A DNA stretch of 62,789 nt, counting the filler, from Stramenopiles sp. TOSAG23-6 (taxonomy: Eukaryota), in the NCBI GenBank assembly GCA_900128565.1. It is 15 parts of 15 records of this genome, joined end to end, with 100 filler letters (N's around TTAATTAATTAA, not from the genome) between each part and the next. Parts side by side here need not be neighbours in the genome. Positions count along the whole stretch, not along the records: positions 1 to 4,113 come from LT637262.1; positions 4,214 to 8,324 come from LT637263.1; positions 8,425 to 12,530 come from LT637264.1; positions 12,631 to 16,732 come from LT637265.1; positions 16,833 to 20,933 come from LT637266.1; positions 21,034 to 25,132 come from LT637267.1; positions 25,233 to 29,325 come from LT637268.1; positions 29,426 to 33,517 come from LT637269.1; 7 more parts are not named here. One strand, given 5' to 3'. The notes below the pieces were generated by a model, which saw nothing but the letters and a program-made list of their open reading frames with translations, was not told the origin of the DNA and did no database searches. The position numbers and the translations under genes are program-made. Of this stretch, positions 128 through 50,884 are shown one piece after another (the first letter of the stretch is position 1; the number at the start of each line of letters is the position of its first letter).

Positions 128-1622
128 CATCACGCACGTAGAAATTCTATGAGATTGTTTCTGAAACTCGTTTGTTTATTACCTAAATATCAAAACGAAA
201 ATACAAACAAGATTAAGAATTCTGGAGCAAAGGCATGTATGGTTTATTTGTTTTTAATTCTGATTTTGTTTTCGTACGTAATTTTGTACCTAACGAAAAA
301 ACAAATTTGAAATATTTTTCCAAAATACATGGGTCAATGATTTTCTTTTGAATACATCAAATTCGCAATCTTCAGATATTGTACATACTTTACATATTTC
401 AAGAAGTTTACATACTTTTGCTAAAAATCGAAATATAATTCCTGATTTTGGACTTGCTGTGCATGTACGTTTTCATTTCAATTTCGAATTTATTTTTTAC
501 TATGTAAATTTCGTACCTAACAAATTTCATCAATAAAAATATTTTTTCACAACACATGTTAGAAATTGTGCTTGGTGGGGTACTGCAATTTCATGGTTAG
601 AAGGATTAATTGCATCTATTGATTTTTATGATTGGATAATTAGGGCTAATCTCCAAAATATTGAAAATGTATTTACAATTCAACAAAGTGATACAAATAT
701 ATTGACCGGGAAACGCAAAATTAGGTATGCGGATACGAGTACGAGTACTAGTGATGCGTATAATATTGTTGATCGTATAAAACTTGCACTAGACAAGTTG
801 TTCCTGGCAGGAAAATTGAATTGTATGGGAGAATTTGAATATAATGACATCAACACATCGATGAGTCTTCCTCCTGTGTTGCTTTCTAAACTTTCCTCCG
901 TGAAAGCCGAATTTTTAATCAAATTATTCAATTTTTGTACACGTATTTTAATTGCAGATCCAACTCGATTGATGGAAAAAACTCAATCAGGTATTTCTGT
1001 GTTGAACGGGTCTTTCTATCATGTATTATTTTGTAGTGTTTTAAATCCTGGTATTTTTGGATTATTATATAGAGAAGCTGAAGGTGTTGATGCATTGCAG
1101 GAATCTACTCGAGAAATTTGCACAAAATTATGTTTTGTTTTTTCTAGTAGAGATTCAACGTCTACCGAAAACAATTTGCGTTTTAGCATGGAATTACAAA
1201 AATCCCATGATGTACTCAAAAGTATAATAAATGATGAATTGTACGGATTAAATGTACTGAATAAAACCGAAACTTCACATGCTAAACTAATTCCACTTTT
1301 ACGAGGATATAAATTATTGTGCAATTCTCGTTTAATTACAAATGACGTTTTATTATGGCATGATAAATCTTTGGGTAAAGAAATAAGCTCTTTTGATGTA
1401 TCAATTCAGATAGCAAAGAAATTATGTGGTGACGTGTCATTAGTTTCAAATGAATCAGATAGGATGACAAAAAAAAAAAAAATCTCCGAAAATGCAATGA
1501 TAAATGAGACTCCTCTGCAACTGGATATTTCACAGCATTTGTTTGATACTGCGATTAAATTGGGATGGCCTGTGTACAATTCGATATACAGTGTATTAAA
1601 TATTATTTTAGGATGTAGTAGT
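128..1622 (+). CDS. PRKDC: DNA-PKcs fragment, central HEAT region (exons 128-236, 331-464, 558-1622; partial)
   Basis: Spliced product HARRNSMRLFLKLVCLLP / SWLEGLIASIDFY / KAEFLIKLFNFCTRIL / SVLNPGIFG / LDISQHLFDTAIKLG resembles recalled human DNA-PKcs CRHKSIELFYKFVPLLP / WLDLLLAALECY / KCTVVVRIMEFTTTLL / LCEPASIGF / QLASGLLELAFAFG in the same order. Confidence 0.8.
237..330 (+). other. Intron, GT-AT (94 nt, contains no AG dinucleotide)
   Basis: GCA T|gtatgg...gtacctaac...aaaatacat|GG GTC restores the frame (A-W-V-N). Confidence 0.9.
465..557 (+). other. Intron, GT-AT
   Basis: CAT|gtacgt...cctaac...acaacacat|GTT AGA gives an open frame into the ORF at 702. Confidence 0.9.
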
Positions 1623-1738
1623 GTTTGTTTTCAAAATTTAATATTTTTATATTTAATTATTTTTTTTTGGAAGAAAATTTTGTACCTAATGATTTTTTTA
1701 CACCAAAAAAAATATATATATATTTTTTCACAATACTT

Positions 1739-3507
1739 GGCTGGTGCAATTCAATGTTTGTCATTTTTATTAACTTCATTTTCTTCGGCTGTTGGTGTCG
1801 ATACAAATAATTCAACAAGTACAGCAAATGAATCCATTATTATGGATTCACAAATGAAGAAGAAACTAGAGTTACGATTGAAGTTGTATACAATGGTTTG
1901 TACATTTTCATAATGAATTTAAAAAAAAAAATTTTGGTAGAAAATTTTGTACCTAACGAATTTTTTTAAACGATTTTTTTTTTCACAATATATGCGACTG
2001 GGGCATATATCTTCCAGAGGATATGTCAAGGTTTACTGTAGCTCAGGCATCATTACAATTAATTAGTAAACATGTACGTTTTCATGATTCATTTTTACCA
2101 ATTTCGAATTTATTTTTTTTTACCAATTTCGAATTTATTTTTTTTTTATCAATTTCGAATTTATTTTTTTTTCTTTTCCGTATAAAGTTGNTTTTTTTTT
2201 TTTANAAANTTCNCCNCCNAACNAATTTTGAATGTAGCATATTGTCACAATATATGCACATCTCTTCCGAAATGAAATGAAATCTAAAAATGCCATTGAA
2301 AATATATTTCATAGATTGTTAAAATGTTGCCATCATTATAGTAAAAAAACTTCAGATATTGGCAAGTTAGCTTTGAGTGCAGTTTTACACGAAATCTCTC
2401 TCAATTTGATAAAAGAATCGAATTTGGTAGATTCAAAATATTTATTTACATTTTTTATGAAAACATTTGCATCATTTCTTGTAGCTGATTCAAATGGATT
2501 TGATAGAATGATTAAAGTTCATATTGGAGTCACTGGTTTTGATATTTTTGCAACAGCTGTTTCAAAATTTGCACCAGATCAGGTCCCGGGTATCGTTCAA
2601 CAATTATTTCATTGTTATGACAGAATAATTCTACAACATAAAAATAAAAAGAGTGATAATAACCCTAACCATAATACAAAAACGTACCAAAATTTCGTAT
2701 CAAATGATAAAGTAGATGAAAGTAGTACAAATAATGTCAAAGAAGCGAAGAGTAAACATAAATTTGATTTTATTAAAAATCGATGGAGTGTCGCATCACT
2801 AATATTAATGAAATGTGGATGTACGTTTTCAAAATTGAATTTTTTATCTATATTTTTTTTATGGGAAATTGTATACCTAACATTTTTTTTTTTACGAAAA
2901 AAAAAAAAAAAAAAAAAAAAAAATTCACAGTATATATTTATCAGCCATTTCGTCATACTTACAATTTCTATCACTGAAAGAATTAGGTAAGAATATGCAA
3001 CTTCGTATTGAACATATAATTCAAGAACTTATTCTAGATTTTCCGAGTATTCATGAAAAACAAAGAATTCACTTAATTCAAGCTTTATTATGTATGTTTT
3101 CAAAATTGAATGTCTAATTTGTTTTTTCATACGAAATTATATACCTAACAATTTTTACAAAACAAAATATTTTTTCATAAGACATGTATGTTTTCAAAAT
3201 TGAGTTTTTTGAATTTTTTTTTTTCGTACTACAATTTGTACCTAACAAAATAACAATATATATTTTTTCACAATACATCAATATTTGTGTCACTTTTGGA
3301 CAAAGGATGTGTTTGTTTTATTTTTTTTCAAATTCGATTTTTTTTTTTTGGTTTTTATAAAAATTTTGTACCTAACAAATTTTTTTAGATTTTTTTTCAA
3401 AAATATTTTTCCAAAATACATTTCGTGATAAAAGGACAGCTGCTATTGGGTTTTTTCAATTACTTACTTTGAAAAGTAAACACAATTTGGTGGACATTCA
3501 ACAAAAT
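1739..3507 (+). CDS. PRKDC: DNA-PKcs fragment, N-terminal HEAT region (exons 1739-1899, 1994-2073, 2256-2820, 2936-3091, 3279-3308, 3422-3507; partial)
   Basis: LAGAIQCLSFLLTSFS / DMSRFTVAQASLQLISKHA / IFHRLLKCCHH / ELILDFPSI / SIFVSLLDKG resembles recalled DNA-PKcs N-terminal motifs VLAGCLKGLSSLL / DLKRYAVPSAGLRLFALHA / LFEVLLKWCAH / MQIDSFPQY / KVFLALAAKG. Confidence 0.78.
1900..1993 (+). other. Intron, GT-AT
   Basis: GTT T|gtacat...cacaatatat|GC GAC TGG joins in frame to DMSRF. Confidence 0.85.
2821..2935 (+). other. Intron, GT-AT (a CAG 5 nt upstream of the end is not used)
   Basis: GGA T|gtacgt...cacagtatat|AT TTA TCA is open; splicing at the CAG leads to a TGA stop. Confidence 0.88.
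3092..3278 (+). other. Two abutting GT-AT intron units (3092-3185, 3186-3278) with no exon between them
   Basis: Each unit has its own gtatgttttcaaaattga donor, cctaac branch point and 3' box; removing both gives LL-S-IFVSLLDKG. Confidence 0.85.
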
Positions 3508-4213: not shown

Positions 4214-6477
4214 TTTCATTATTTTCATTATTTTCATTATTTTCATTATTTTCATTATTTTCATTATTAGTTGTTAGACATGTTTCGTTCATCTCTGCAA
4301 CATCATTTGTTTCTTTTTGTTCAGTTTTATACATGTCAGATTTCGTGTTGTATATATCTTGTGTTTCATTATTATTATTATGATTATCCAAACTGCCAAT
4401 GACGTTACTACACTGTACATTCGATTTTGATTGAAATTGTTTAAAAAAATCTTCTTCCCCAGGATGGAGCCAACGTTCACTTTTACGAGCAATAACGCTA
4501 CATTTTGGATATTTTGGAGTATTTAACGGAGTATTTAACTCTGATGTAACAAACTTCGTTCCTTCATGACACGAAATCTTATTTCTTTTATCAAGTTTTT
4601 CTTGTGCCAAACGTCTTCTATCTTGTTCAGCTCTCCAATATACTACTAATGAAGGTACGTATTTAAAAGCTTGGCTACTATCCACTCCATCACCCACTGA
4701 TAATGTTGATTTTTGACTTATTTCTATATCACTATTCTTTGAATGTAAATTATTTGAATTTTCTATTGAAGTAGTTGGTGGTGTATCAAATTCTCTAGGT
4801 GAGGAAGATTTGGTACGAAATTTCGTACCAAATCCACCAAAACGTCGGAGTCTTCGATTTTGAATCTTTTCTGCAATAATGTCAAATTCTACAACACAAT
4901 TTGACGTTGGACAAAAATTGAATACATTCTCATTTGAAGCATTTGAAATATTTTCATGTTTTTTCAAATGATTTTGATTTGTTTGATTGGTTTGCTTAGG
5001 GTTAGGGTTACTTAAATCTACACCCTCATCTTCAGTGAGAGAAAAATCAAAGTCTTCAATATTTATGTATTTTGGAAAAATATTTCAAAAAAATCCAAAA
5101 AAAATTGTTAGGTACAAAATTTCGTACGAAAAAAAAAATCGATTTTTTTGTAAAAAAAAAAATAAAACATACATACCTCTAAGAATAGGATGAACTTCTG
5201 TTTTAGGGTTAGGGTTAGGATGAACTTCTGTTTTTGACTCTAGCGCAACACTTTGTGAAACATTTGTACCAATGTTTGTATCGTTTTGTATATTAGGGTT
5301 AGGGTTTTGCATTTTTTTTTGAACAGGTTTATGTTCAATGCAAGATAATTCATGTATTGTAGGAATATATACATATATTTTTTAGTTTTTTTGTTAGGTA
5401 CAAAATTTCGTATAAAAAAAAAATCTGTAAAAAATTCATTAGGGTTAGGGTTAGGAAAAACGTACGTGTGCTTCAACTTCTTTATACGTACCAATATACC
5501 CACAATTAAATTCACATTCATGTATTGCGAAGATAAATCTCTATATATGTATACATAAATTTGTTAGGTACAAAATTTTGCGAGGAAAAAAAAATAAGAT
5601 AAAATATTCAATTTTGAAAACGTACATATATCATCAAATGAGAATCACTCGCATCATGAGGGTTAGGGTTTGCATCATTTACCTTTTTGTTATCTAGATG
5701 TTTTTCATCAATATTTGCATTTATATTTTTTGATTCTTTTGTACTTTTTGTAGTACATGAAGTCTGTATTGACTCTGTTGACATTAAATGTAATTGGTTA
5801 GAGGAAGAAGAGGCCTCAGAAATATCAACTTGCTTCTCAATACCAGAAATAAAACTTTCCTGCCCAAGATTAATGTTATGATTACGAAAACAAATATCAC
5901 AGAGGTTTAAGTGGACATAACCCATTCCAGAAAGGCTATAATCAGCTAAAAACTGATGAATATATGGAACATGTGACTCAAATGGAAGAAACCTAAACGA
6001 TTTTCCATGCAATGAGACTCCTGTCGATGCACGTTTTGAAACCTTTTTCACATCGTCTGGGTTTCGTAGAGTGACGAGCAGAAACCAGCTAGGTTCATGA
6101 TAGCCATAGAAATTTATACGACGAACAAATTCAATATCAATGACTTCACGACCAAGTTGTTTAGTACGTCGGAGAGCAGAAATTATTTTATTACGCGAAA
6201 CTTCTTCACTATTACCAAATTCATCGAATAATTCCTGTGGACATTGCAAATAGAAATATGGTTTCACGCCATGTATGTGTACTACTGCTTTCTTTCCATC
6301 CGATGTTGCCCCATATACTCTTATTACAGGCGCAACCAATTCTTTTAATCTATACATTTTGGAAGAAACATCCTCAAGTAAAACCTCTTCACCTGTTTGT
6401 GTGTCCATCATATAGTGTTCAAGGTACAGCAGTTGTACAGTGTACAACGAAGACGCTTTCAATGATGTCTCACTCAT
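4214..6477 (-). CDS. REV3: DNA polymerase zeta catalytic subunit, N-terminal part (exons 6477-5626, 5519-5466, 5351-5173, 5064-4214; 3' truncated)
   Basis: PVIRVYGATSDGKKAVVHIHGVKPYFY, FYGYHE and FESHVPYIHQFLADYSLSGMG are REV3 N-terminal motifs; three GT-AT introns (5520-5625, 5352-5465, 5065-5172) restore the frame. Confidence 0.85.
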
Positions 6478-6775
6478 ATTCCTTCATACAGTGTATTACT
6501 CGAGATATTATTCAAACATAGCATCAAAAATCAAGTATGATAACCTTTATCAAAATCCTAAAGCTAGAAACATAGAATGTATAGATTTATTAGAAGTTTT
6601 GGTTATAAAAAGAGTACGAGGAGGTACACATGTTTATTCGAAAAAATTGACTGAATCAGGAGAAATCAGGAGTGAAAAAAAAAAACACAAAACGCATAGT
6701 ACATAGTACAATACAATACAATAACGTATAAAGCATCACATCATATATGCTATAAAGAATACTTTTTTTTTATTA

Positions 6776-7620
6776 CTACAACCCGCCTAGCAATCTTTTT
6801 TCTGCTACAAACTTTTTCCTTATCGCTTTTGCGTTTGCAGATTCAAATTCAACTGGAAAAAATTTATTCGCATCAGCAGTTAATTTTTTAATATCATCCA
6901 CTCTAGAAAACTGACTAGCAATGTATTTTGGAAAAATATTTCAAAAAAAATCTAAAAAAAAATGTTAGGTACAAAATTTCGTATGAAAAAAAATTCGATT
7001 TTTTTGTTAAAAAAAAAAATAAAACATACACAGCTTTCATCAATATATTGATATCATCAGGTTCTACTTCGGCATAGAGATTACGCATATATTGTAAAAG
7101 AATATTTTCAAAATTTGATTTTGTTTTGTTAGGTACAGAATTTTTGAAATAAAAAAACAAATAAATTCGAAATTCATGAAGAAACACGTACATTGCATTC
7201 AAAAGAGCTTTGAGTGCATCAGCTCGTTCAGACTCCAATTTTGTTCGTAAAGTGGATAAATCAGTGTAGAGAGTTTTTGGGATGCATTTTGAAAGAATCT
7301 ATCAAATTTAAGTTTTAGTTAGTAGGTATAGTAGATATGGAATGTGCTACAAGAAAAAAAATTAAAGTACAATATTGTTAGGGTTAGGGTTTGTTGTTAG
7401 GGTTAGGGGTAGAAAACATACATAATATCCAGAGCTTTTTCTGGAAATATCTTCTTTGCGTGTTTAAGGAGAAATTGAATATCTTCAAGAGTTGGTATTT
7501 CTTCATAAATTCCTTTCACTATGCCTTCAATAGACTCTATTTTAATACAATCAAAATATAATACTCTAAGTTTCAACTCTAACTCGGCTTTAAGTTTTTT
7601 CTTTTCATTTTCTCGCCTCA
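6776..7620 (-). CDS. Unknown helical protein C-terminus (exons 7620-7422, 7281-7192, 7086-7030, 6920-6776); either a PI3K extension or a separate mis-joined gene
   Basis: Open frame across GT-AT introns 7282-7421, 7087-7191 and 6921-7029 to a TAG stop; two similar ~70-aa helical units. Confidence 0.6.
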
Positions 7621-7738
7621 ATGTATTTTGGAAAAATATTTCAAAAAAAAAATCTAAAAAAAATTGTTAGGTACAACATTTTTTTACCAAAAAAAAAAAA
7701 AAATCGAATTTCGAATTTAAAAAAAAAATAAAACATAC

Positions 7739-8212
7739 ATTATCAATTCGTCTTGTTATGTCACTGATGGCATTATCAATCAGCTTACGAAACCATTCAC
7801 GTGCCTCTTTTTCAGTAAGCTCTAGTTGCAGCATTTCCCGCATAAACTCTAAATCTCTCTGACCACAGAGCTCCGGTAATTGCATGCACTATGAAAAAAT
7901 ATTAAAAAAAAAACTCGTTAGGTACAAAATTTCGTACGAAAAAAAAATGAATTTGAAATTCAATATGAGAACCTACATCGGAATAGCCATTGAAAATAAA
8001 TGTAAAAGAACTCGATGAGAGCGGCGTGCAAGAATAAAGGCATTCAGTGCCAAATCAGCAAATTCTTTCAACTTTTCTGTGCCAGAGCTTCCAGCAGATA
8101 TAGCAGAAACCATTCCAGGATCAAGTACAAACCTACATCTTTCACGTCGATATCCTTTCATTGCCATTGTTGAACCGAGAAAATGTCCAAAATCAATATG
8201 AAAAAGCCGACC
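7739..8212 (-). CDS. Phosphoinositide 3-kinase (class I-like), C-terminal part of kinase domain (exons 8212-7977, 7883-7739)
   Basis: GRLFHIDFGHFLG...RRER.RFVL...LFSMAIPMQLPEL...LELTEKEAREWF. Intron 7884-7976 must end in AT; using the upstream AG frameshifts LPEL. Confidence 0.88.
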
Positions 8213-8424
8213 ATGTATTTTGGAAAAATATTTCAAAACAAATCTAAAAAAAATTGTTAGGTACAAAAATTTTTTTTTCCGTAAAAAAAAAAAAAATAAA
8301 TTCAATTTCAAATTTAAAAAAAAANNNNNNNNNNNNNNNNNNNNNNNNNNNNNNNNNNNNNNNNNNNNTTAATTAATTAANNNNNNNNNNNNNNNNNNNN
8401 NNNNNNNNNNNNNNNNNNNNNNNN

Positions 8425-11398: not shown

Positions 11399-12438
11399 TT
11401 ATTTTACATCTTGCATAAAACCTAATTTTGGTTTTATTAAAACATGCTTAATTTTCTTCTGNATCTTTTCAATTCTTTGGATGAAATGTAGCTGGACATT
11501 TCCTCTAATATCTAAAGTTTCCAAATTTCCAGAATACTCCAACATCTGTTCCTTTTTTTTAAATATATACAAATGTATCAAANTTTTACATCCAATAATT
11601 TTTAGATGTCGCATTTTGTTGAAAAATTTTGCACCACGAATATAGTAATTGTCTTCTGAGTAAAGTTGCTTTCCATCAGAGATCCAACCAGTTTCTGTAA
11701 AGGANGAGCAATTCTTTATAATTAATGTCTCTAACTGCATAATTTTACCGGGTGGATCGATTAATTGATCCAGTGTTTCNTCGTAAGTTCTATTCCATGG
11801 CCATGATTTTTCTTTAAATTTGTTGAATATTGCTAAATCTTTCTTTGGCTGAAGACCTTTNAGACTTTTTAAGTAATGACACTCTTCTATCCTCAACACT
11901 TTTAAAGCTTTACAATCAATTATACANGATAAATCAACAAGATAATTCATTCCATGAAAATGTATCTTCCTTAGTTTATTCAATTGTTTCAATATTTGCA
12001 ACTTCTTTTGATCTAATTGACAACAATTTGTTATAATTAAAGTTTCTAAATTGTGACAAACTGAAAGAACACCAATATCGACTAGACACCTTGCTTTGTG
12101 AATACAAAGTGAAGTTAGACTAGACACTCCGGATAACCACAAAGGTAGCACTGACAGTGACCAACAATGATTTAGTGTAATAGACATTTTAGTCATTTTC
12201 TTTATCGAATTCGTTTTTATTTATTGTGAAAAACATTTATTTTTAGACTTTTCGTTAGGTACGAAATTTAGTACAAAAAAAATTGAAATTCAATTTCGAA
12301 AACGTACATTATCTTCATTTGGTTTCGAGGATGACTTTCTGCTGAATGAATAGTTTGCATAAAAGTATCTTGCAATGACCTTTGCCCTATAATATTACCA
12401 TATCCATTCCAACCAATAGTAGATTCTAGTTGAACATC
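11399..12438 (-). CDS. LRR protein, C-terminal part (exons 12438-12308, 12218-11399)
   Basis: LETLIITNCCQL / LKVLRIEECHYL repeats; GT-AT intron 12219-12307 restores the frame. Confidence 0.75.
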
Positions 12439-12715: not shown

Positions 12716-15700
12716 TCTAACAAAGAAATAAATGTTTCATAAATGCATTTCCTTTCAGTTTCACTAACAGTAGTCGCTGAAGCATCTAATTCCAACGAAG
12801 ATAAACTAGATAGCACAACTTGTACAAGAGTGTCCGTGGTTGCAGTGCCGCCTGTATCCTTTTCATTTGATGAAGAGATATAATTTCTATCATCATCTTC
12901 AATATCGAGTTGAGACGTGACTTGGCGTACTCTAGCAGATTGAACTAAACCTTCAACCATCTTTACACTTTCATCAGAACGCACAGTAGATGGAGATGCT
13001 TCAAAAGCAGCAACTAATCCCTTCAAAGCTGCTTGGGCTAAAGGCTTGCGAGGATTACTATTTTTGTTATTAGCAATATCTGAAAGAATCTTAAAAATTC
13101 TTGTCCATGTTGTGACAGGTAAGGGCGAAACGAAAACGTCCTTAAATAACTTAAAAAAAACCTTCTCAAAAGGAGTTATGCGGTCGTATTTCAGTGCAAG
13201 AGAAACAGCTGATTGTGGATATAATTTCACACAAGCAAAATGTTTTCTTGAAGTAATTATCCTCATTTCACTCAAAAGATCCAACAGAGAATCTACAGTA
13301 TTCCCCCGCCAACATGAGTGATATTGTAACTCTCGGGCATGTACAAACGTTTTTGCAATGGCATTCAACAATGCACAAGCAACTTTTTCGTGTTCATTTT
13401 CAACAACAGAAGGACATAAACATATTTTTTTAAAGGCATTCCATACATGTTTTTGTAATTGAATCCAATGTTTTTCTTCCAACTTGGGTGTATTTAAATT
13501 TGTAACAATTTTATCATCCACGCATTTATTTTCTTCTAGATGATCATTTGAAACAATGTCTTCTATAGGAGATCCATCAATGTCGACATTTACAAGTGCA
13601 CCATCAACAACACGCATGCGTTCTGTGATATCGCCTCCTTCAGATTTAATTGTTTGACCACAAAGAGCTGACATCAAAAACATTTCTTGAAGAACATTCA
13701 CTGCAGCCAATTCAACCTCAAATGTATCCGATGTAGTACTCTTCTCCTGATTACCTCCTTGTAAAATAGCAATTTCTGCAGCACTTATTAAATGTTTCCA
13801 TGAGCTTAATAACCATTTTTGATGCAATTGGGAATTTTCTTGCTTTAACCAAAGTGATGTAAATATTTTTTTGAAAATCCGCGTCACACCATTCAAACAA
13901 ATAACTGTTGTTTCATACCATTGTTTTTCAGCAGTATCTCTTGTATGATGCATTAAGATATGGACTTTTTCACCAGAACGAGTTCGACCTAATTCTGCTC
14001 CCTGTACCTTACTATCCGTTGCTGCTGCACATGATTGCGAACGTTGTATTTCAGACAATAAAGGTAATAAACAATTCATAAAACAATGCTCCCAACATGA
14101 CAATGAAAAAACACTTCCAGAAGAAATAATTATATTAATGAGAGTTCGCAAAGCACAATTTCTGACTTCTGGGCGGGAGTCTTTTGATATTCGACTCAAT
14201 TCACCAAACAAAACAACCCACAACCCATTCATCTCCAGATTGAAATCTTTTACTATAATTGTAGGAGACACAATGACATTACTGTGATTATTTTTTAACG
14301 CAATTTTGGGGGAATGATTTGTGTTGCAAGTATTTTTCGGTGCTACTTTTTGCTTGATAAAATCCGCAGCAGTCCAAAATGTATTGATTGCAGTGAGTGC
14401 CACATTTATATCACCACGTTGATCACCATAACAACCTAAACAAAGTAAAAATTGAAGCAGTGCATGTATTTGTAAAGTACCTAAAAAATCATCAGCAATA
14501 AGATTAAGAGATTTAAATCCAATACCTATTTCAGAATCACGACTACCACCCGAGACATAGATATTTTCACCGCTACTATACGGCGAAGGAATATATTCTG
14601 GTACAGTTTCAATATCTACTGCCGGAGCACAAATAATCTCCATTGCGGGTGTCCAACCATCACTAATCACATCACCACAATTTACTAATAGTTGAAATAA
14701 ATCTTCAAGGACTCTCTTTTTAGTATCTACATATTCTGTCTTAAACATTTGCTGCAAAGTTCGTAGCATTTCACTTTGTCTTTTTCTAGGAATCGGATAA
14801 TTATTGTACTTTACATTGTTATTATTATCTGTATCCTTTTCTTGATCTTTCATATTAATATTGTTATTACTATCTGTATCCTTCTCTTGATCTTTCATAT
14901 ATAAAAGAGAATATTTTATTAATTCCGTTAGAGATTTCGTGGCAAACTCCCGTTTTGCTTTAGAACTAGACGATGCACATACCAACAAGTGTTCTTTTAT
15001 AATTTTCCACCAAATTGGTTCTAACAAACGAAAAATATTTTCATTTGCGACATCAATTAGTCTTTTAAAACCAAAGGAAATATCCTGTGGATAAGCTCTA
15101 CCTTTGACACGTTTTAAGACCATATTTGCATGAATAGATAAAGATTCCACTGCACTATCACGCTTTCCAATAAGTTGTGTCACACTAGCAGTTTTATATA
15201 AATTCCGTGCATGTGTTCCAATTATATTTGACACGGATAAACCAACTGCTGATGGAGAAAACGTCGATGATGACATTGATGCCCCAATCGAACTATTTTG
15301 TACAGTTGAGGAAGGTGGTAGTCCTTTTGATGTAGTACTCTCGACCCCAAGGCCTTCCATCGCCTTTTGTCTCATTCGTTGTAGTGCGTTTATTCTCGAA
15401 CTCTTTTCATTAACTACCTTTGATAAATTACGAAAAAATATTTTAAAATCGATTTTTTTGTTAGGTACAAAAAATTCGTATGAAAAAATAAATTGGAAAT
15501 TCTTGATGAAAACCTACATGTATCAACACTTAAAACATTTTTAGGTGATGTTTCTATTGTTGTCATGTCTATAGATATATTTTCCAAGTTTGATTTTACC
15601 GAGAGAGAAACTAAAGCAGTAATAAGAGATTGTAGAGCATCATCATTTATGGATTTACTTGAAATAAACAGTTGTTCCAATTCATTCAAAAATAGATTAA

Positions 15701-16675
15701 ATTCTGGATCAGTTCCTTCTAATGACTTAAGCATGTTAGAAGAATATACAATTTCAATCTTTTCATATACACTTAATAAAAACTCCCAATCATCTCCTAA
15801 TACAGAACTTAAATTTCTTCCAATACTTAACAGAGTTTTTGCTGACTTGACATGTTTCAAAGAAATTTGACACCATCCGTCATCATCCACGAAATCTTTG
15901 CTTAATGAAACTATCTCCCTCAGATGATCATCAACGGAAAATTTTTGAATTCTTTCATGTAATACTACAGGTTGCCATTGTTTAGGTAATGAAAATATTG
16001 ATAAAACAGTTACAAAAGCATTAAATGCTTCACTGTGACCCAAGTGTTTGCAACAACAAGAAAACATCTCGAAAGATTTCAATATTTTTTGCATTAATTC
16101 TATATCTGTACATACAAGCAGTGTGAAAAAATATTTCTAAAAGAAAAATTGTTAGGTACAAAATTTACTATGAAAAAAATTGAAATCCGTGATGAAAACA
16201 TACATGCAATAATGGAGACAGAGCAGCTAATGCAGGTTTCCATAAAGCTCGGATTATAGCATGTAGATCATCTTTTGTAGCTGTAATTTTAGTACTATTA
16301 TTCTCTACATTATTATTCAATTGATTCCACATGGAGCTCACTCGAGACATTAAAGAAAGAAAAGAAGATGCCGCCCACACTACTTGTGTACCACAACTAG
16401 CACACGTATATGTATTGTAAAAAAAATATTTCAATTTTTTTTACATTAGGTACAAAATTTTGTACGAAAAAAAAATTCCAAGTTGAAAAAAATAAACATA
16501 CATAGACTATTCGTATTTGTAATTCCACTTTGTCCAAGAATTATTGATTGGTCACTAAATTCTACGTAGCAATCGGAAAAGTATTCATCCCTTTTCTGGT
16601 TTTGATTAAGAAAAGACTGATAACTTTTCAACTCAGATGTTGTACAATTTTTTAATTGTGTGCGTATAAAATTAG
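12716..16675 (-). CDS. MON2: MON2 (endosome-to-Golgi trafficking), internal part
   Basis: DINVALTAINTFWTAADF, DSRPEVRNCALRTL and ILMHHTRDTAEKQWYET are MON2 hallmarks; introns 16410-16501 (GT-AT), 16116-16203 (GT-TT) and 15423-15517 (GT-AT). Confidence 0.9.
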
Positions 16676-16910
16676 ATGTATTGTGAAAAAATATTTCAAA
16701 AAAAAATCGTTAGGTACAAAATTTCGTACGAANNNNNNNNNNNNNNNNNNNNNNNNNNNNNNNNNNNNNNNNNNNNTTAATTAATTAANNNNNNNNNNNN
16801 NNNNNNNNNNNNNNNNNNNNNNNNNNNNNNNNTTTTAATTTTTTTTTTCATACGAAATTTTGTACCTAACAAATTTTTTAAATTTTTTTTTAAATATTAA
16901 ACAACAATTT

Positions 16911-29263: not shown

Positions 29264-29316
<53 letters not shown>

Positions 29317-33513: not shown

Positions 33514-33670
33514 TTAGNNNNNNNNNNNNNNNNNNNNNNNNNNNNNNNNNNNNNNNNNNNNTTAATTAATTAANNNNNNNNNNNNNNNNNNNNNNNNNNN
33601 NNNNNNNNNNNNNNNNNTACGAAATTTTGTACCTAACAATTTTTTTTTGAAATATTTTTCCAAAATACAT

Positions 33671-41999: not shown

Positions 42000-44900
42000 A
42001 TTATNATTATCATCTANATGTATATTCATATCATCATTATCATCTATATGTATAGTAGTCCGACTTCCACGATTTTTACGTCGGTCAATAATCGCTCTAG
42101 CTCGATTCCGTTGAAGTTTCTGTTGCTCATTTTGTAATTGCATTTTCCACTCACTTGATGATGTACTTTTATTTTTAGTAGAATCAGTGTGACTCTTAGA
42201 TGTATAATTATCATTTGAAGTATCTCTATTTATTTCTTTTGGTTTTTCTTCTTTTTCTGATAGAAAATTTGTTTCTTTTTTTTCTTCTTTTTCTGATAGA
42301 AAATTTGTTTCTTCTTTTTCTTCTTTTTCTGATAGAAAATTTGTTTCTTCTTTTTCTTCTGGTAGAAAATTTGTTTGGTATTTTGATTGGGTAAGTTCTT
42401 CACCATTCATACTATTACCTGCTGATGTCAATTTCCATAAAGATCTTTTAGTGATTGATGTTTCATGTTGTTTCCCATCACAGTTCGATTCATGTTTTAT
42501 ATTGGTTGCATTACATGGTACAATATTTTTACCATCTTTTACATTATTATTATAAACGTAATCCATACTATTGCTTTCAGTATTAAATGCAATATTTTCA
42601 TTAACACTTTCATCGCAATCCGACTTCTCACTATTTGATGTCTGTGATTGAGATAACGTGAATGAACTGTATTGTGCAAAAATATTTGAAAAACAATTCG
42701 TTAGGTACAAAATTTTTTTACGAAAAAAAACCAAAAAAAAAAAAAAATTCGAAATTGAAATTGAAATGAAAACGTTCAATAATTGCCCCATCACTTCGTC
42801 TTTTACATGATTTGCCACACGACTTTTGAACAATTCTTCCTCTTTCAATTTCGCAGCAGCTGCCGTTCGAGCGGCTTTTTCTAATATTATTTTGGATATT
42901 TCATTTTCCAAGTTTTGTTTTGTCACTTGTAAAGATTCAATCGTAACCGTCACTTCTTTTAATTTTTTACGAAGTTGACGCAAAGTAGGCTTTTTAATAT
43001 CATTACACTTTTCTACATTTCGTGATTTATCCTTACTTTTTTTTGTCGTTTTTCGCTTTCCTTTTAGATTTTTTATATTCACAGTTTTTTGATTCATTTT
43101 TGGATTTGTTTTCTTAATATTTCGCCATTTGTCTTTTATATTTGTTGAACTTCGTAAACATAAAATTTCGGAAAACTCTTTATCATTTTTCATCTCCGTC
43201 CAATTTCCAATTCCATGTTTTTCCACTGCTTTATGTAATGCGTCCACCTCAGAAGCAGTCCATCTTTTTCTTTTAGATTTCGTGTTTTTTGTATGATCTG
43301 GTAGTACTACACTATTGGATTCAATGGATTCAATGGATTGTATACCTCCTCCACATGACTCTATATTATTTGGGGATATCCCATTTGTTGTTGTATATAT
43401 ACCTGAGTTATTGGCTTTCTTTATCAAGTCTATTAATACACCTGTCGAGACGTTATTCACTTTAGCACATTTTTTTAAATGTGAATTTTTTTTAGTCGAT
43501 GTAAAAGTTGAAAAGTCAATGTTGCATAAAACACATTTTTGATTTCTTTGGAAATGTGTTCCAACAACCGAAATGTTTATACTATTACTATTAGTATCAA
43601 TATTATTATCAATACTTATACTATTATTATTATCAATACTTATACTATTAGTATCAATATTATTATCAATACTTATACTATTATAATCATTTTCAATATG
43701 TTTATTCGCATTAGTGGATTGTTTTTGATTTTCTAGACAATATTGGATACATTTTAAAGTTTTTGTTTCGTTTCTATTTATTTTTGTAATTCTTGAACTA
43801 CAGTTTTTATCTAAACACACATTTACATGCCGTTGTCTCTCCTCAATTGAATAATTATCAAGATTTTCATCACAGGCAGGACAACAGAAGTTAGGGTTAG
43901 GGTTCGTTGACTCTTTATTTTTGGGTACAACTACATTTTTAAGTACAGATTTCATTACTTCTTGTTTTGGAGATGAAGATTTCGACGTTTTTGCAACTTT
44001 TGTTTTCTGTTGAATACAAAAGGAAAAATCTTCAAGGACTATTGGGCCTATTTGTTGTCGATTTTTTTGATTTTCAATATTTATTTTATTTGATATTTTT
44101 ACTTTTTCTTCATTTTCATTATTTTTTTGATTTTTTTCAATTTCAATCGTGTTTGGTAAAGAACTATTTGATTTCGCTTTTTTCACTTGACTTGTTTCAA
44201 TAAAATCTGACAAATCTAATTCATTTATTTCTGGAGACATGTTTTGAAGTATACCAGTAGATAATGATCGCTTTGGAGTATTTGCAATTTGAGCGCATTT
44301 CCGTTTAGTCGTTTTTTTATCAGAGATTTCAGAGTTTTGATGTATACTATTATTATCAGAATTGACCATAAAATAATGCAAAAGAGCTGAAGTGTCACCC
44401 ATATTGATATGTGTCATACACATTTCTCGATTCTGCGCACGTTTAATTTGAAGAGTAACGCCTACATTTGGATTGAGTTGAAGTTCATTCAATCGTGTTC
44501 CATTTGTACTTGAAAGATCTGTTATTCCTACTGTGAGAATTTCCTCGTTGTTTTCTATCAATGAAGATTGTTTTTTTTTATGTCCATACACTTGAATCTT
44601 GCAGTGACAATCAGATACAGAAGTATCCTTTCGTAGAGTTATACCACATTTACGTGACCGACCTATAATTATTGTAGTGCAGTCATCATCACAGACTTCA
44701 TTTGTACTTTTTTCACTACTTTCGGTCCCTTCAGTTTCGAGTAAAATATCTAAACTATTCGATTCACGTAGATCTTGACTATCCGCATTATCGTCAATAC
44801 CATTATTCTCCTTTTGTTGCGATAACCGTATTCTAGCTTTTGTTTTTTTTGACTGCAAACGCCCTCCGAGTCTCGACCTCTTCTTTTTGGGATCTCGCTG

Positions 44901-45047
44901 TCTCTTCCTTCGTAATTTTTCCTTCACTACAACTGGTGCTGTCAATTCAACGTTTCCCGCTTCTGATGTCCATAGTGGAAAATGCTCTCCAGCATGCGGA
45001 CCAGATATTACAATGAGTTGTAGCTCATGCTTTGCAGATGTCATCAA
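42000..45047 (-). CDS. SLX4-like protein with FHA, two UBZ4-type zinc fingers and a TRF-type Myb (telobox) domain; intron 42667-42777; 3' truncated
   Basis: IGRS...VSDCHCKI...DLSSTNGT (FHA); CPACDENL...RQRHVNVCLD and CVLC...KNSHLKKCA (UBZ4 pair); KRKRWTASEVDAL...IKDKWRN (telobox). Confidence 0.75.
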
Positions 45048-45264
45048 TGATTTGAACTATTTACGTGGGAGCCATTATTGTTCTTTTAAATCTCTCTCCT
45101 TCTTCTCTTGAGATCAGCGACTCAAAAAAAAGTACTCAAAAAGTCGTTTCAAACCCTATAATCGTGAAATTGATTAGAAAATATATCATCATGTAACTTT
45201 CATTCATTTTTTTTTTATTACTTATTACTTTTTTTTATGATAAAATTATTGTAAACAGCCTCTA

Positions 45265-46023
45265 TTATATCTTCCTTAACAAATAAACACCTGCAAGCAA
45301 CCCGCCTAATTCAACACGCCATTGATTCTCAATCTGTATAAGTGAATTAGAGTTTGATACAACTTTTGTAGGGTTAGGGTTAGGGTTAACATTATCCGTA
45401 CAATTTGTACATTTTTGTATATTTTTTGTATTTGATTTGACTGCAGAGTCCCGAATCATTCTCAAATTTTGCCACAAAGTTCTTGTATCATTCGGAAATG
45501 CAGTAATCCAATCCTCAGCAGTTGTTTCCCCTTCAAGCAATTCCACTGGAACATTTCCTAAATATTTGTCAATAAAGTTTTGAATGGTTGCCAAAAGTTT
45601 GAGACGTTTTATTTTTACTTTGTTGTTACTTTTATTAGCGTTTTTATTACTTTTATTATCCTCATCATGTATACTATTCTTTATTTTTACTTTGTTGTTA
45701 CTTTTATTAGCGTTTTTATTACTTTTACTATCCTCATCATGTATATTATTCTTTATTTTTACCTTTTTAATACATTGATGATCCTTCTCATGTATTTCAT
45801 TCTTTATATTATCATTTATTTTTGTCATTTTGAGAATTTGAGTTTTTCTTTTTCTATCATTACCCTCAAAAATTTTCTTTCTTTTTTGTAACAATTTTCT
45901 ATAGCAAATACTATTCAAATATTTCTCATGGTCTGCTGAGTCAACTATAATTTTTGAATATTCAGTATTTATATTTTTTATCCATTTCTGAAAATTCTTT
46001 GTCAATGACGTCAGAATTACAGC
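45265..46023 (-). CDS. Unknown K/N-rich protein, last exon
   Basis: Open frame after intron end ...aaaatacag at 46024. Confidence 0.6.
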   Translation of the reverse strand, partial: AVILTSLTKNFQKWIKNINTEYSKIIVDSADHEKYLNSICYRKLLQKRKKIFEGNDRKRKTQILKMTKINDNIKNEIHEKDHQCIKKVKIKNNIHDEDSKSNKNANKSNNKVKIKNSIHDEDNKSNKNANKSNNKVKIKRLKLLATIQNFIDKYLGNVPVELLEGETTAEDWITAFPNDTRTLWQNLRMIRDSAVKSNTKNIQKCTNCTDNVNPNPNPTKVVSNSNSLIQIENQWRVELGGLLAGVYLLRKI

Positions 46024-46183
46024 CTGTATTTTGGAAAAATATTTCAAAAAAAAATCTAAAAAAATTTGTTAGGTACAAAATTTNNNNNNNNNNNNNNNNN
46101 NNNNNNNNNNNNNNNNNNNNNNNNNNNTTAATTAATTAANNNNNNNNNNNNNNNNNNNNNNNNNNNNNNNNNNNNNNNNNNNN

Positions 46184-49100
46184 ATTATNATTATCATCTA
46201 NATGTATATTCATATCATCATTATCATCTATATGTATAGTAGTCCGACTTCCACGATTTTTACGTCGGTCAATAATCGCTCTAGCTCGATTCCGTTGAAG
46301 TTTCTGTTGCTCATTTTGTAATTGCATTTTCCACTCACTTGATGATGTACTTTTATTTTTAGTAGAATCAGTGTGACTCTTAGATGTATAATTATCATTT
46401 GAAGTATCTCTATTTATTTCTTTTGGTTTTTCTTCTTTTTCTGATAGAAAATTTGTTTCTTTTTTTTCTTCTTTTTCTGATAGAAAATTTGTTTCTTCTT
46501 TTTCTTCTTTTTCTGATAGAAAATTTGTTTCTTCTTTTTCTTCTGGTAGAAAATTTGTTTGGTATTTTGATTGGGTAAGTTCTTCACCATTCATACTATT
46601 ACCTGCTGATGTCAATTTCCATAAAGATCTTTTAGTGATTGATGTTTCATGTTGTTTCCCATCACAGTTCGATTCATGTTTTATATTGGTTGCATTACAT
46701 GGTACAATATTTTTACCATCTTTTACATTATTATTATAAACGTAATCCATACTATTGCTTTCAGTATTAAATGCAATATTTTCATTAACACTTTCATCGC
46801 AATCCGACTTCTCACTATTTGATGTCTGTGATTGAGATAACGTGAATGAACTGTATTGTGCAAAAATATTTGAAAAACAATTCGTTAGGTACAAAATTTT
46901 TTTACGAAAAAAAACCAAAAAAAAAAAAAAATTCGAAATTGAAATTGAAATGAAAACGTTCAATAATTGCCCCATCACTTCGTCTTTTACATGATTTGCC
47001 ACACGACTTTTGAACAATTCTTCCTCTTTCAATTTCGCAGCAGCTGCCGTTCGAGCGGCTTTTTCTAATATTATTTTGGATATTTCATTTTCCAAGTTTT
47101 GTTTTGTCACTTGTAAAGATTCAATCGTAACCGTCACTTCTTTTAATTTTTTACGAAGTTGACGCAAAGTAGGCTTTTTAATATCATTACACTTTTCTAC
47201 ATTTCGTGATTTATCCTTACTTTTTTTTGTCGTTTTTCGCTTTCCTTTTAGATTTTTTATATTCACAGTTTTTTGATTCATTTTTGGATTTGTTTTCTTA
47301 ATATTTCGCCATTTGTCTTTTATATTTGTTGAACTTCGTAAACATAAAATTTCGGAAAACTCTTTATCATTTTTCATCTCCGTCCAATTTCCAATTCCAT
47401 GTTTTTCCACTGCTTTATGTAATGCGTCCACCTCAGAAGCAGTCCATCTTTTTCTTTTAGATTTCGTGTTTTTTGTATGATCTGGTAGTACTACACTATT
47501 GGATTCAATGGATTCAATGGATTGTATACCTCCTCCACATGACTCTATATTATTTGGGGATATCCCATTTGTTGTTGTATATATACCTGAGTTATTGGCT
47601 TTCTTTATCAAGTCTATTAATACACCTGTCGAGACGTTATTCACTTTAGCACATTTTTTTAAATGTGAATTTTTTTTAGTCGATGTAAAAGTTGAAAAGT
47701 CAATGTTGCATAAAACACATTTTTGATTTCTTTGGAAATGTGTTCCAACAACCGAAATGTTTATACTATTACTATTAGTATCAATATTATTATCAATACT
47801 TATACTATTATTATTATCAATACTTATACTATTAGTATCAATATTATTATCAATACTTATACTATTATAATCATTTTCAATATGTTTATTCGCATTAGTG
47901 GATTGTTTTTGATTTTCTAGACAATATTGGATACATTTTAAAGTTTTTGTTTCGTTTCTATTTATTTTTGTAATTCTTGAACTACAGTTTTTATCTAAAC
48001 ACACATTTACATGCCGTTGTCTCTCCTCAATTGAATAATTATCAAGATTTTCATCACAGGCAGGACAACAGAAGTTAGGGTTAGGGTTCGTTGACTCTTT
48101 ATTTTTGGGTACAACTACATTTTTAAGTACAGATTTCATTACTTCTTGTTTTGGAGATGAAGATTTCGACGTTTTTGCAACTTTTGTTTTCTGTTGAATA
48201 CAAAAGGAAAAATCTTCAAGGACTATTGGGCCTATTTGTTGTCGATTTTTTTGATTTTCAATATTTATTTTATTTGATATTTTTACTTTTTCTTCATTTT
48301 CATTATTTTTTTGATTTTTTTCAATTTCAATCGTGTTTGGTAAAGAACTATTTGATTTCGCTTTTTTCACTTGACTTGTTTCAATAAAATCTGACAAATC
48401 TAATTCATTTATTTCTGGAGACATGTTTTGAAGTATACCAGTAGATAATGATCGCTTTGGAGTATTTGCAATTTGAGCGCATTTCCGTTTAGTCGTTTTT
48501 TTATCAGAGATTTCAGAGTTTTGATGTATACTATTATTATCAGAATTGACCATAAAATAATGCAAAAGAGCTGAAGTGTCACCCATATTGATATGTGTCA
48601 TACACATTTCTCGATTCTGCGCACGTTTAATTTGAAGAGTAACGCCTACATTTGGATTGAGTTGAAGTTCATTCAATCGTGTTCCATTTGTACTTGAAAG
48701 ATCTGTTATTCCTACTGTGAGAATTTCCTCGTTGTTTTCTATCAATGAAGATTGTTTTTTTTTATGTCCATACACTTGAATCTTGCAGTGACAATCAGAT
48801 ACAGAAGTATCCTTTCGTAGAGTTATACCACATTTACGTGACCGACCTATAATTATTGTAGTGCAGTCATCATCACAGACTTCATTTGTACTTTTTTCAC
48901 TACTTTCGGTCCCTTCAGTTTCGAGTAAAATATCTAAACTATTCGATTCACGTAGATCTTGACTATCCGCATTATCGTCAATACCATTATTCTCCTTTTG
49001 TTGCGATAACCGTATTCTAGCTTTTGTTTTTTTTGACTGCAAACGCCCTCCGAGTCTCGACCTCTTCTTTTTGGGATCTCGCTGTCTCTTCCTTCGTAAT

Positions 49101-50263
49101 TTTTCCTTCACTACAACTGGTGCTGTCAATTCAACGTTTCCCGCTTCTGATGTCCATAGTGGAAAATGCTCTCCAGCATGCGGACCAGATATTACAATGA
49201 GTTGTAGCTCATGCTTTGCAGATGTCATCAATGATTTGAACTATTTACGTGGGAGCCATTATTGTTCTTTTAAATCTCTCTCCTTCTTCTCTTGAGATCA
49301 GCGACTCAAAAAAAAGTACTCAAAAAGTCGTTTCAAACCCTATAATCGTGAAATTGATTAGAAAATATATCATCATGTAACTTTCATTCATTTTTTTTTT
49401 ATTACTTATTACTTTTTTTTATGATAAAATTATTGTAAACAGCCTCTATTATATCTTCCTTAACAAATAAACACCTGCAAGCAACCCGCCTAATTCAACA
49501 CGCCATTGATTCTCAATCTGTATAAGTGAATTAGAGTTTGATACAACTTTTGTAGGGTTAGGGTTAGGGTTAACATTATCCGTACAATTTGTACATTTTT
49601 GTATATTTTTTGTATTTGATTTGACTGCAGAGTCCCGAATCATTCTCAAATTTTGCCACAAAGTTCTTGTATCATTCGGAAATGCAGTAATCCAATCCTC
49701 AGCAGTTGTTTCCCCTTCAAGCAATTCCACTGGAACATTTCCTAAATATTTGTCAATAAAGTTTTGAATGGTTGCCAAAAGTTTGAGACGTTTTATTTTT
49801 ACTTTGTTGTTACTTTTATTAGCGTTTTTATTACTTTTATTATCCTCATCATGTATACTATTCTTTATTTTTACTTTGTTGTTACTTTTATTAGCGTTTT
49901 TATTACTTTTACTATCCTCATCATGTATATTATTCTTTATTTTTACCTTTTTAATACATTGATGATCCTTCTCATGTATTTCATTCTTTATATTATCATT
50001 TATTTTTGTCATTTTGAGAATTTGAGTTTTTCTTTTTCTATCATTACCCTCAAAAATTTTCTTTCTTTTTTGTAACAATTTTCTATAGCAAATACTATTC
50101 AAATATTTCTCATGGTCTGCTGAGTCAACTATAATTTTTGAATATTCAGTATTTATATTTTTTATCCATTTCTGAAAATTCTTTGTCAATGACGTCAGAA
50201 TTACAGCCTGTATTTTGGAAAAATATTTCAAAAAAAAATCTAAAAAAATTTGTTAGGTACAAA
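46184..50263. repeat. Redundant contig: copy of 42000-46079 (SLX4-like gene 46184-49231; ORF 49449-50207)
   Basis: Identical ORF translations, and the same internal n positions. Confidence 0.95.
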
Positions 50264-50418
50264 NNNNNNNNNNNNNNNNNNNNNNNNNNNNNNNNNNNNN
50301 NNNNNNNTTAATTAATTAANNNNNNNNNNNNNNNNNNNNNNNNNNNNNNNNNNNNNNNNNNNNTTGTACCTAACAAATTTTAGTTTTTTTTTTTTTGAAA
50401 TATTTTTCCAAAATACAT

Positions 50419-50884
50419 CTATGATAGTGGACACAAAACTTGGCTTCGAAAGCATAGTAGCTTTGCTGATATTAATGAATTTAACAATCTTGCAGATGCT
50501 CTTGAAAGTTTTCTCACAACAAAGGCTTTCAAAGGCTTGGTAGAACTAGGGTTAGGGGATGTATGTTTTTATATTTGATTTTTTTTTAGTAGTAAATTTT
50601 GTACCTAACGAATTTTTAATCAAAAAAAAAAATTCTCTATATATGTTTTTGATTTTTTTTTAGTAGTAAATTTTGTACCTAACGAACTTTTAATAATTTT
50701 TTGTTTTTTCACAATATATGTTTTTGGAAGTTCTGGTGAAGAAACCGATGCTAGTCGAGAAGGTCTGTCTGATCTTGTGGATTTGGCTGTAGCTGATGGT
50801 TGCCAAACAAATGCTGTGACTCTTTTGGAGAATGATTATCATGAGATAATGAATTTGGCATTTAGGTTAACAAAAAAAGCATAA
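50419..50884 (+). CDS. C-terminal exons, probably iron-containing alcohol dehydrogenase family
   Basis: KGLVELGLGD|VFG...LSDLVDLAVADGCQTNAVTL..DYHEIM joined by GT-AT intron 50561-50719. Confidence 0.55.

Follow-up and report, generated by a model that had tools for sequence, protein, structure and literature searches.

Genes in a 62,789-base stretch of DNA from the assembly of Stramenopiles sp. TOSAG23-6 (GCA_900128565.1), hereafter the window, are interrupted by short introns that belong to one repeat family and that appear, from reading frames, to end in AT. We regard them, with a probability of roughly 0.7, as spliceosomal introns that form an introner-like family, their 5' and branch signals canonical and their 3' end YAT. 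Every copy brings along a 3' tail (TTCACAATAYAT), a branch box (TACCTAAC) and a 5' splice site of yeast-like type (GTAYGT), and the stretch removed from the RNA would extend from the G of GT to the closing AT, its T included. The major-type spliceosome of the host would routinely use YAT, and also accept YAG, as its 3' splice site. The family may have spread recently into many genes, in sense orientation and with a preference for ..AT|G.. sites, and its final AT would belong to the element itself or have been copied from a target AT.

A wider claim, to which we give only slightly better than even odds, is that in a free-living marine protist lineage YAT has replaced YAG as the 3' site preferred by the major spliceosome, a pattern that ~88% of the window's introns fit, and that this came with an invasion of ~100-nucleotide (nt) AT-ending introners. 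The lineage would have no close relative among 1.84 billion searched representatives of ~15 billion public proteins, and its 5' site and branch box would have stayed textbook yeast-like. The shift would also be independent of, and more extreme than, the case known from larvaceans.

Structure of the introns

Fourteen gene chains were built by hand from three-frame maps and gave 43 introns with both flanks testable. Each of the 43 has the orientation of the gene that it interrupts, and all begin with GT (GTATGT in 16, GTACGT in 15, GTAGGT in 3, other hexamers in 9). A branch box of the TAC(C)TAAC type is present in 42 of the 43, with the branch A 33-60 nt from the intron end (median 41), and the tract between the branch box and the 3' end is T-rich. 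These counts bear out the U2-type donor on the coding strand that the original prediction had described. Intron length ranges from 84 to 184 nt with a median of 106, and intron GC content is 0.19, against 0.32-0.36 in four long exons. Introns occur about once per 300-500 nt of gene.

The 3' end departs from this conventional picture. The last two intron bases are AT in 38 introns, AG in 3 and TT in 2; the last three are CAT in 22, TAT in 12 and AAT in 4, so that YAT accounts for 34/43. U2-type introns combine a GT donor of U1/U6-pairing consensus and a branch box, which are both found here, with a YAG 3' site, which is not the rule here (AG in 3/43). The exon before the GT ends in AT in 27 of 43 cases and in YAT in 17, its last base is T in 35, and the first base of the next exon is G in 22/43.

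Reading frames across the junctions

The placement of the 3' end was evaluated by splicing the neighbouring introns as given in the catalogue below, moving the 3' border from -4 to +4, and measuring how far a frame stays open over the junction. In 41/43 introns the longest such frame belongs to the frame class of the family-defined end (chance 1/3, P(X>=41)=1.1e-17), and 41/43 introns end at one and the same family position. Among the AT-ending introns 36/38 pass, in close agreement with the 36 of 44 introns previously found by hand to be frame-restored at ...AT. Discrimination between frame classes is weak for the introns at 3092, 23185, 12307, 5625, 28528 and 23450.

Conventional AG ends fare no better than chance. 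Of the 40 non-AG introns, 14 have their first AG 3' of the branch box in frame, which is the chance rate, and 23 have no AG at all from branch to end. Six introns carry an AG 4-5 nt before the end, out of frame in every case. Intron 237-330 (+), which had been reported to contain no AG anywhere, indeed has none. The original prediction named GT...AT as the dominant intron class, and within the window the reading frames support this (38/43 AT; AG alternatives chance-like). That the RNA is cut at AT is what we infer from the 43 reading frames and one exact protein colinearity; the pattern may extend through the whole genome.

The exact colinearity is found in a phosphoinositide 3-kinase (PI3K) gene, at the kinase-domain intron 7884-7976 (-, GTAGGT..CAT). 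Residues 1-78 of the exon before it match residues 772-849 of 7bi4_A, a solved PI3K-C2alpha chain, and residues 2-45 of the exon after it match residues 852-895. The junction codon for M and the following Q fill the two-residue space between these blocks, with no indel, so a 3-nt shift of the border would leave one. In a Mon2 gene, the junction of intron 16116-16203 (-, GTATGT..CTT) is ungapped against the homologue P0001 ('...SPLLH|VCTDIELMQ...'). Because GTATGT stands at the start of both this intron and the next exon, seven registers give an equal mRNA, and one of them is GT..AT.

Intron removal rebuilds PMQLPEL, the C2-domain motif PVWNQ and, before a TBC domain, RFDMWVKL, as previously noted. 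A MYND finger listed with them fares less well: it is rebuilt in frame, but its product has C-x-C in place of the C-x2-C of the Pfam profile. A test of continuity by profile or structure gave a signal for PI3K only, the exons of the C2, methyltransferase, PH and TBC regions being too short or too weak.

One repeat family supplies the introns

The branch box TACCTAAC occurs 68 times in the window against 0.95 expected, a count reached by 0/100 shuffles. No exact match lies inside a coding exon. Forty of the 60 non-redundant matches fall in the 43 curated introns, and the remaining 20 are in gap-cut introns, 5'-region copies or 3 odd cases. The conserved 3' end of the family introns is TTCACAATAYAT. 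A 22-base 3' tail, GAAATATTTTTCCAAAATACAT, has 19 occurrences at up to 2 mismatches against 0 expected, and is exact in 11 places.

When the sites are aligned on the branch box, the 5' part of the unit reads GTAYGTTTT followed by a T-rich stretch and often a palindrome, TTTCGTACGAAA. The 3' part reads TTTTGTACCTAAC, followed by a T-rich tail that contains GAAATATTTTT; the last bases are CCAAAATACAT or CACAATAYAT. Likeness between introns of different genes extends over their full length, the best pairs having identities of 0.94, 0.91 and 0.87 where shuffled sequences reach 0.63 at most; best-pair identities across the introns span 0.61-0.94. In one such alignment (A1), which shows homology over the full intron length, two AG-ending copies differ from AT-ending copies at the last base alone.

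The introns are thus introner-like copies of one repeat element, a key point that the original prediction did not contain. Since they descend from one family, their uniform signals reflect common descent as much as constraint. Two copies stand back to back (3092-3185 and 3186-3278), two are doubled (28528-28695 and 50561-50719), and tandem partial copies lie at 1-127. It looks as if a unit had inserted or been duplicated at its own AT|G end.

The palindrome TTTCGTACGAAA is a perfect one of 12 bases and lies just 5' of the branch box in many copies, for example at 5401-5420 (-) and 26130-26149 (+); a variant reads TTTCATACGAAA.

Exceptions and alternative explanations

Several observations weigh against an introner-like family with a YAT end. 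The sample is one window with ~55 kb of non-redundant DNA and without a small nuclear RNA (snRNA). Five of the 43 borders (1615/1734, 3309, 18005, 31325 and 28017/28108) were picked among nearby GT/AT sites by frame; dropping four of these five leaves 37/43, on a hand reading with no separate run. The frame fixes only length modulo 3, and shifts by 3 nt or equal shifts of both borders are possible except at the PI3K junction. Two AT-ending introns, 7621-7738 (-, GTATGT..CAT, after the PI3K kinase domain) and 17511-17594 (+, GTACGT..CAT), are in frame only if the border is moved 1 nt upstream (..ACA|T); in the former, cutting at AT would create a TGA at the junction. These two may be true variants or may reflect indel errors near the junction. 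Intron 21597-21723 (+, GTATGT..TTT) has TT at the family AT position, and no other register is possible for it.

Two further copies depart from the pattern at their 5' ends. The MYND-finger intron 18736-18842 (-, 5' end GCATGT, 3' end CAT) carries GC at the family GT position. Its removal is in frame and leaves a product one zinc-knuckle residue short (the profile cysteines are at 14 and 17); the real borders probably differ by one codon. The copy at 42667-42777 (-, 5' end GAACGT, 3' end CAG, same DNA at 46851-46961) has GA at its 5' end and no in-frame stop, and it lies inside a 1034-residue open reading frame (ORF) with FHA and Myb domains. Being 111 nt long and without a stop, it keeps the ORF open by removal and by retention alike. 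It may no longer be spliced, an intron turned into coding sequence.

The exon-end and intron-end dinucleotides are equal in only 25/43 introns, which makes the idea of a target copy weak. Hand comparison found no convincing inverted terminal repeats, only complementarity of the GTAT/ATAC type in an AT-rich context, and the RNA folding of 8 copies was no better than that of shuffles (z from -1.8 to +0.2).

Of the alternatives, the strongest is one that we nonetheless consider unlikely. It accepts spliceosomal introns and holds that their real borders are not GT..AT, because of cryptic AGs, 3-nt shifts or mixed ends, the AT being an artefact of inference from frames. The modulo-3 limit, the five frame-picked borders, the two introns that need ..ACA| and the short MYND product all suit it, as does an AG somewhere between branch and end in 17 of the 40 non-AG introns, six of them 4-5 nt before the end. 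It is opposed by the behaviour of these AGs, since the first one is in frame only at the chance rate of 14/40, those at -4/-5 are out of frame, and 23/40 introns have none to offer. A 3-nt shift at PI3K would make an indel against 7bi4_A, and none is seen. The constancy of the family position of the end, in 41/43, also argues for the GT..AT borders.

A second possibility, improbable in our view, is that GT..AT splicing is real and the introns are old and ordinary, with strict signals in an AT-rich genome and no mobile family. In its favour, strict and uniform signals are known in some small genomes, and neither convincing inverted repeats nor a clear target duplication were found. The likeness between copies, however, is full-length and includes parts without a known role as signals, at 0.8-0.94 against the shuffled maximum of 0.63. 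The back-to-back, internally duplicated and non-coding partial copies likewise favour a family that has multiplied.

The register of the introns bears on the next alternative. Since 27/43 exons end in AT, borders of GT..AT, TG..xA and AT..xx give an equal mRNA for these introns, and complementary DNA cannot separate them. We prefer the GT..AT register because GT stands at the first family position in 43/43, including the 16 exons that do not end in AT, and because a shifted register would make the 3' ends heterogeneous. The alternative places the register two bases to the left, which would give AT-AC or AT-AT introns (ATGTAYGT...AYAC|AT) removed by a minor, U12-like spliceosome. U12-type introns have a /ATATCC donor and a branch A roughly 10-26 nt from the 3' end. 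In its favour, the 27 exons ending in AT would yield an equal mRNA after this shift, and TACCTAAC somewhat resembles the U12 branch box TCCTTAAC. With 16/43 exons not ending in AT, mixed 3' ends after the shift (AC, AT, GC and AA), an (AT)GTAYGT donor unlike /ATATCC, and a branch A at 33-60 nt, we rate this reading a shade below that of old introns.

The occurrence of AT|G at both junctions fits an element whose first base is G and whose last two are AT, inserting at AT|G sites, or a 2-nt duplication of an AT target, of the kind proposed for Micromonas introners and for the TAC triplet of Fritillaria (PMC11282704). A 3-nt target duplication finds no support, agreement at the third base being no better than chance (hand count). 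Covariation of intron positions +3/+4 with -3/-4, compared by hand, was inconsistent.

It is very improbable that the inserts are cut from DNA in the manner of ciliate internal eliminated sequences, with AT direct-repeat borders of which one copy is left. They are short and AT-rich, they have non-AG ends, and an AT direct repeat stands at both borders in 25/43. In ciliates such sequences show no fixed orientation to the gene, have TA borders and often go with a reassigned stop codon. The present inserts are in sense orientation in 43/43, with a donor and a branch box at spliceosomal spacing; the ORFs are open under the standard code, three copies have a plain AG end, and the borders are AT and not TA. 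An independent seawater DNA run moreover has 30% of the words of an insert-dense stretch, as a word share only. Least probable of all is that the inserts are never removed and represent pseudogenes or an assembly error of final T for G: the assembly is of low quality, with 1480 N and duplicate contigs that differ by indels, but the final T recurs in 38 separate copies, the 22-mer tail is exact in 11 places, and the exons keep long open frames and conserved domains after removal of inserts that contain stops and are mostly of a length not divisible by three.

Source DNA and host

The window consists of about 16 contigs of roughly 4.1 kb, ordered by falling length and not forming one locus. They are joined by N runs with a TTAATTAATTAA linker. 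As the window is a length-sorted chain of contigs, genes that face each other across a spacer are not true neighbours. Contig 42000-46083 is present again as 46184-50263 (100% identical), and contig 16833-20933 again as 54541-58617 (99.3% identical; over 4.1 kb the two differ by 3 mismatches and 5 gap openings). The differences between duplicate contigs point to single-base indel errors at ~1 per 800 bases. GC content across the window is 22-37%. No transfer RNA was found in the window, and no Rfam family at gathering score, snRNAs included.

The encoded proteins are of kinds ordinary for a eukaryote: Mon2, a PI3K kinase domain, the N-terminus of REV3/Pol-zeta, COG5, and PH, C2 and SMP domains, as well as U-box with Sel1, FHA with Myb, LRR and EF-hand proteins. 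The ORFs reach 1216 residues under the standard code. Similarity to sampled organisms is low. The 951-residue Mon2 exon has a single homologue, at 24% identity, among 5.8 billion protein clusters searched, and the SMP exon has no match in the protein collections searched. For the intronless COG5 ORF the best match is a EukProt protein at 35% identity, followed at 26-31% by Mortierella-type fungi, a conifer, Pigoraptor, corals, a sponge, a dictyostelid and charophytes; no tunicate is among the named matches (20 matches looked up). The JGI metagenome contigs gave no match to the genes (protein query) or to the intron 22-mer tail, and the IMG/VR and GTDB genomes none to the genes or the intron tail.

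Words of the stretch 21034-29325 have shares of 0.75 and 0.63 in two small DNA runs, which are the likely source. Their share is 0.30 in an independent seawater metagenome DNA run, and 0.06-0.13 in five seawater metatranscriptome runs, three of them polyA; the latter values speak for presence in RNA libraries only. These shares point to a marine organism with sequences that occur in RNA libraries. Judged from sequence comparison, the host is a marine eukaryote, very divergent and far from everything sampled.

On the contig 4214-8324, minus strand, lies the 3' end of the PI3K gene, whose best solved match is class II PI3K-C2alpha and which has more in-frame exons beyond the kinase domain. A stop near 6780 is followed by the start of a REV3/Pol-zeta-like gene (MSETSLK..., about 6477). 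With this stop and this start close together on one 4-kb contig, gene spacing is very tight.

Short telomere-like tracts, (CCCTAA)2-3 or (TTAGGG)2-3, occur in frame within coding exons, where they read NPNPN; four are in the REV3-like gene. Such tracts lie at 4215-6483 (-), 17315-17340 (+) and 50545-50560 (+). Others are near the 5' end of several introns, inside 5352-5465 (-), 7282-7421 (-) and 22594-22693 (+). Long telomere-like arrays are absent from the window.

Catalogue of introns

Introns listed without comment are placed by the frame test. On the plus strand at the start of the window lie introns at 237-330 (GTATGG..CAT), 465-557 (GTACGT..CAT), 1615-1734 (GTAGTA..AAT), 1900-1993 (GTACAT..TAT), 2074-2255 (GTACGT..TAT), 2821-2935 (GTACGT..TAT), 3092-3185 (GTATGT..CAT), 3186-3278 (GTATGT..CAT) and 3309-3421 (GTGTTT..CAT). 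The border of 1615-1734 was set by frame, the family-homologous end at 1738 being out of frame. The exon before 1900-1993 ends in TT, and the register of its border is nearly unambiguous. Intron 2821-2935 has an out-of-frame AG 5 nt from its end. Intron 3092-3185 abuts 3186-3278, the second of this tandem pair, with no exon between them, and only the sum of the pair was tested; the donor of 3309-3421 was picked by frame. The two tandem partial copies at 1-127 (+), each with branch box and tail, lie upstream of the first coding exon.

Besides the two introns already described, the minus strand of the PI3K contig has introns at 7282-7421 (GTATGT..CAT), which has a TACTAAC branch and holds telomere-like repeats, 7087-7191 (GTACGT..TAT) and 6921-7029 (GTATGT..CAT). 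The last of these is 0.94 identical to intron 5065-5172 (GTATGT..CAT) of another gene, which is placed by frame test and family identity. The REV3-like gene has an intron at 5520-5625 (GTACGT..CAT), with weak frame discrimination, and intron 5352-5465 (GTACGT..CAT) follows an exon that ends in AC. Also on the minus strand, 12219-12307 (GTACGT..AAT) discriminates weakly between frames (30/29/11), and Mon2 has introns at 16410-16501 (GTATGT..CAT) and 15423-15517 (GTAGGT..TAT) in addition to the one at 16116-16203.

On the plus strand, the family intron 17038-17149 (GTACTT..TAG) has a canonical AG end. Intron 18005-18168 (GTGTTT..AAT) has a donor set by frame, since a GT at 18003 would give a TT end, and the exon before 18277-18387 (GTACGT..CAT) ends in GC. 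Further along are 22594-22693 (GTATGT..TAT), with a TTAGGG-like tract inside, 22776-22884 (GTATGT..CAT), 23185-23368 (GTACGT..AAT, weak discrimination, 60/36/60), 23450-23545 (GTATGT..CAT, weak discrimination), 23917-24022 (GTACGT..CAT, with an out-of-frame AG 5 nt before the end), 24549-24650 (GTACGT..CAT) and 24772-24887 (GTATGT..CAT), which splits the W codon of the C2-domain PVWNQ. A T-rich, low-complexity stretch at 24296-24384 (+) in the SMP/C2 gene breaks the frame without a TACCTAAC box and has the IVYPN motif at its edge; it looks like an intron of another kind.

A methyltransferase-like gene has an intron at 25786-25899 (+, GTACGG..TAT), and the exon before 26102-26198 (+, GTACGT..TAT) ends in CA. 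The PH-domain intron 28017-28108 (+, GTTTTT..TAT) has a family alternative, ATACGT at 28013 to TAT at 28110; either reading is in frame with an AT end. Intron 28528-28695 (+, GTACGT..CAT) has two branch boxes and rebuilds RFDMWVKL, with weak discrimination. The canonical family intron 28781-28888 (+, GTATGT..TAG) is 0.83 identical to the AT-ending intron 5065-5172. On the minus strand are 31442-31545 (GTAGGT..TAT, exon ending in TT), 31231-31325 (GTATTT..TAT, donor by family homology and frame), 30785-30881 (GTACGT..CAT, exon ending in AA) and 29896-30021 (GTATGT..CAG), whose AG end follows an exon that ends in AT. The internally duplicated intron 50561-50719 (+) is GTATGT..TAT.

Of other family introns, cut by contig gaps, the 3' parts are left. 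Those at 8213-8263 (-, just before the PI3K sequence GRLFHIDFGH), 33630-33670 (+), 50367-50418 (+) and 16676-16716 (-) end in CAT; those at 46024-46075 (-, same DNA at 50208-50259) and 21073-21114 (+) end in CAG and TAG, respectively. A partial copy at 22045-22110 (-), with a branch box and no recognisable ends, lies antisense between two plus-strand genes and is the sole copy seen without a neighbouring gene in the same orientation.

Discussion

The terminal G of the intron is among the most conserved letters in eukaryotic genes, and it is read in the second catalytic step of splicing by pairing with the first intron G. If the AT ends described here are used, the lineage is a natural experiment in which GT and a strong branch box were kept while about nine in ten introns came to end in T. 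It would show how a 3' site is picked out of an AT-rich tail that holds many other ATs, and would reveal which factors changed (U2AF, Prp8, Slu7/Prp18 or the snRNAs). It would also be a second independent case, beside the larvacean Fritillaria, that ties repeat-driven mass intron gain to an altered or relaxed splice code. Gene finders and read mappers that require AG would mis-annotate almost every gene of the lineage in marine metagenomes.

No description of a GT-AT-dominated genome was found in the literature searched, in line with the original prediction, though a GT/AT class may exist in F. pellucida. To say that no genome favours 3'AT would be too strong, since according to Soo et al. (NAR 2026, PMC13326754) AT is the most frequent intron end in Fritillaria, with 44% in F. 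pellucida and 34% in F. borealis. In both species YAY forms the final triplet of the intron and often stands ahead of the 5' site as well, and the 5' ends are mostly not GT but AG (PMC13326754). Introns of F. borealis are of the AG/AC and AG/AT kinds, with only 5% canonical ones, and its U2AF subunits are duplicated and divergent (PMC13326754). A transposon-like origin of Fritillaria introns is also described, with an exonic triplet proposed as the source of the 3' site (PMC13326754, PMC11282704).

The introns of the window share the 3'AT ends of Fritillaria, with YAT as the last three bases in 34/43 and as the exon end in 17/43. In contrast to the mostly AG 5' ends of Fritillaria, they have GT in 43/43, a yeast-like GTAYGT and a strong branch box. 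Fritillaria species are larvacean tunicates, whereas the COG5 matches of the present host, at 26-35% and spread across many groups, show no tunicate affinity.

Introners are the other point of comparison. Those of Micromonas, Aureococcus and dinoflagellates, which are like miniature inverted-repeat transposable elements, are described in PMC11282704 as many near-identical short introns in unrelated genes; some of the splice signals are provided by the element itself, and a duplicated target may provide the other site. Near-identical short introns in unrelated genes are likewise found here. Those introners have canonical GT-AG ends, target duplications of at least 3 nt and inverted terminal repeats (in part from PMC11282704). 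The present introns differ from them in their AT end and in a direct repeat of at most 2 nt that is imperfect (25/43), and no convincing inverted repeats were seen among the copies compared.

The fungal introner-like elements of van der Burgt et al. (2012) are reportedly roughly 100 nt long, carry all splice signals inside and multiply within the genome; they are said to be GT-AG, to fold stably and to be without inverted repeats or target duplications. The ~100-nt introns of the window resemble them in having all splice signals inside the element, and differ from what is reported of them in folding (z from -1.8 to +0.2) and in the AT end. Yeast introns (GTATGT/TACTAAC/YAG) are matched by the GTAYGT donor, the TAC(C)TAAC branch box and the branch-to-end distance of 33-60 nt, and are unlike the present ones in the extra C of the branch box, the very high density, and YAT in place of YAG. 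Measured against the literature covered here, the novelty of these introns is that of a variant which joins introners and Fritillaria-type 3'AT splicing, both already known.

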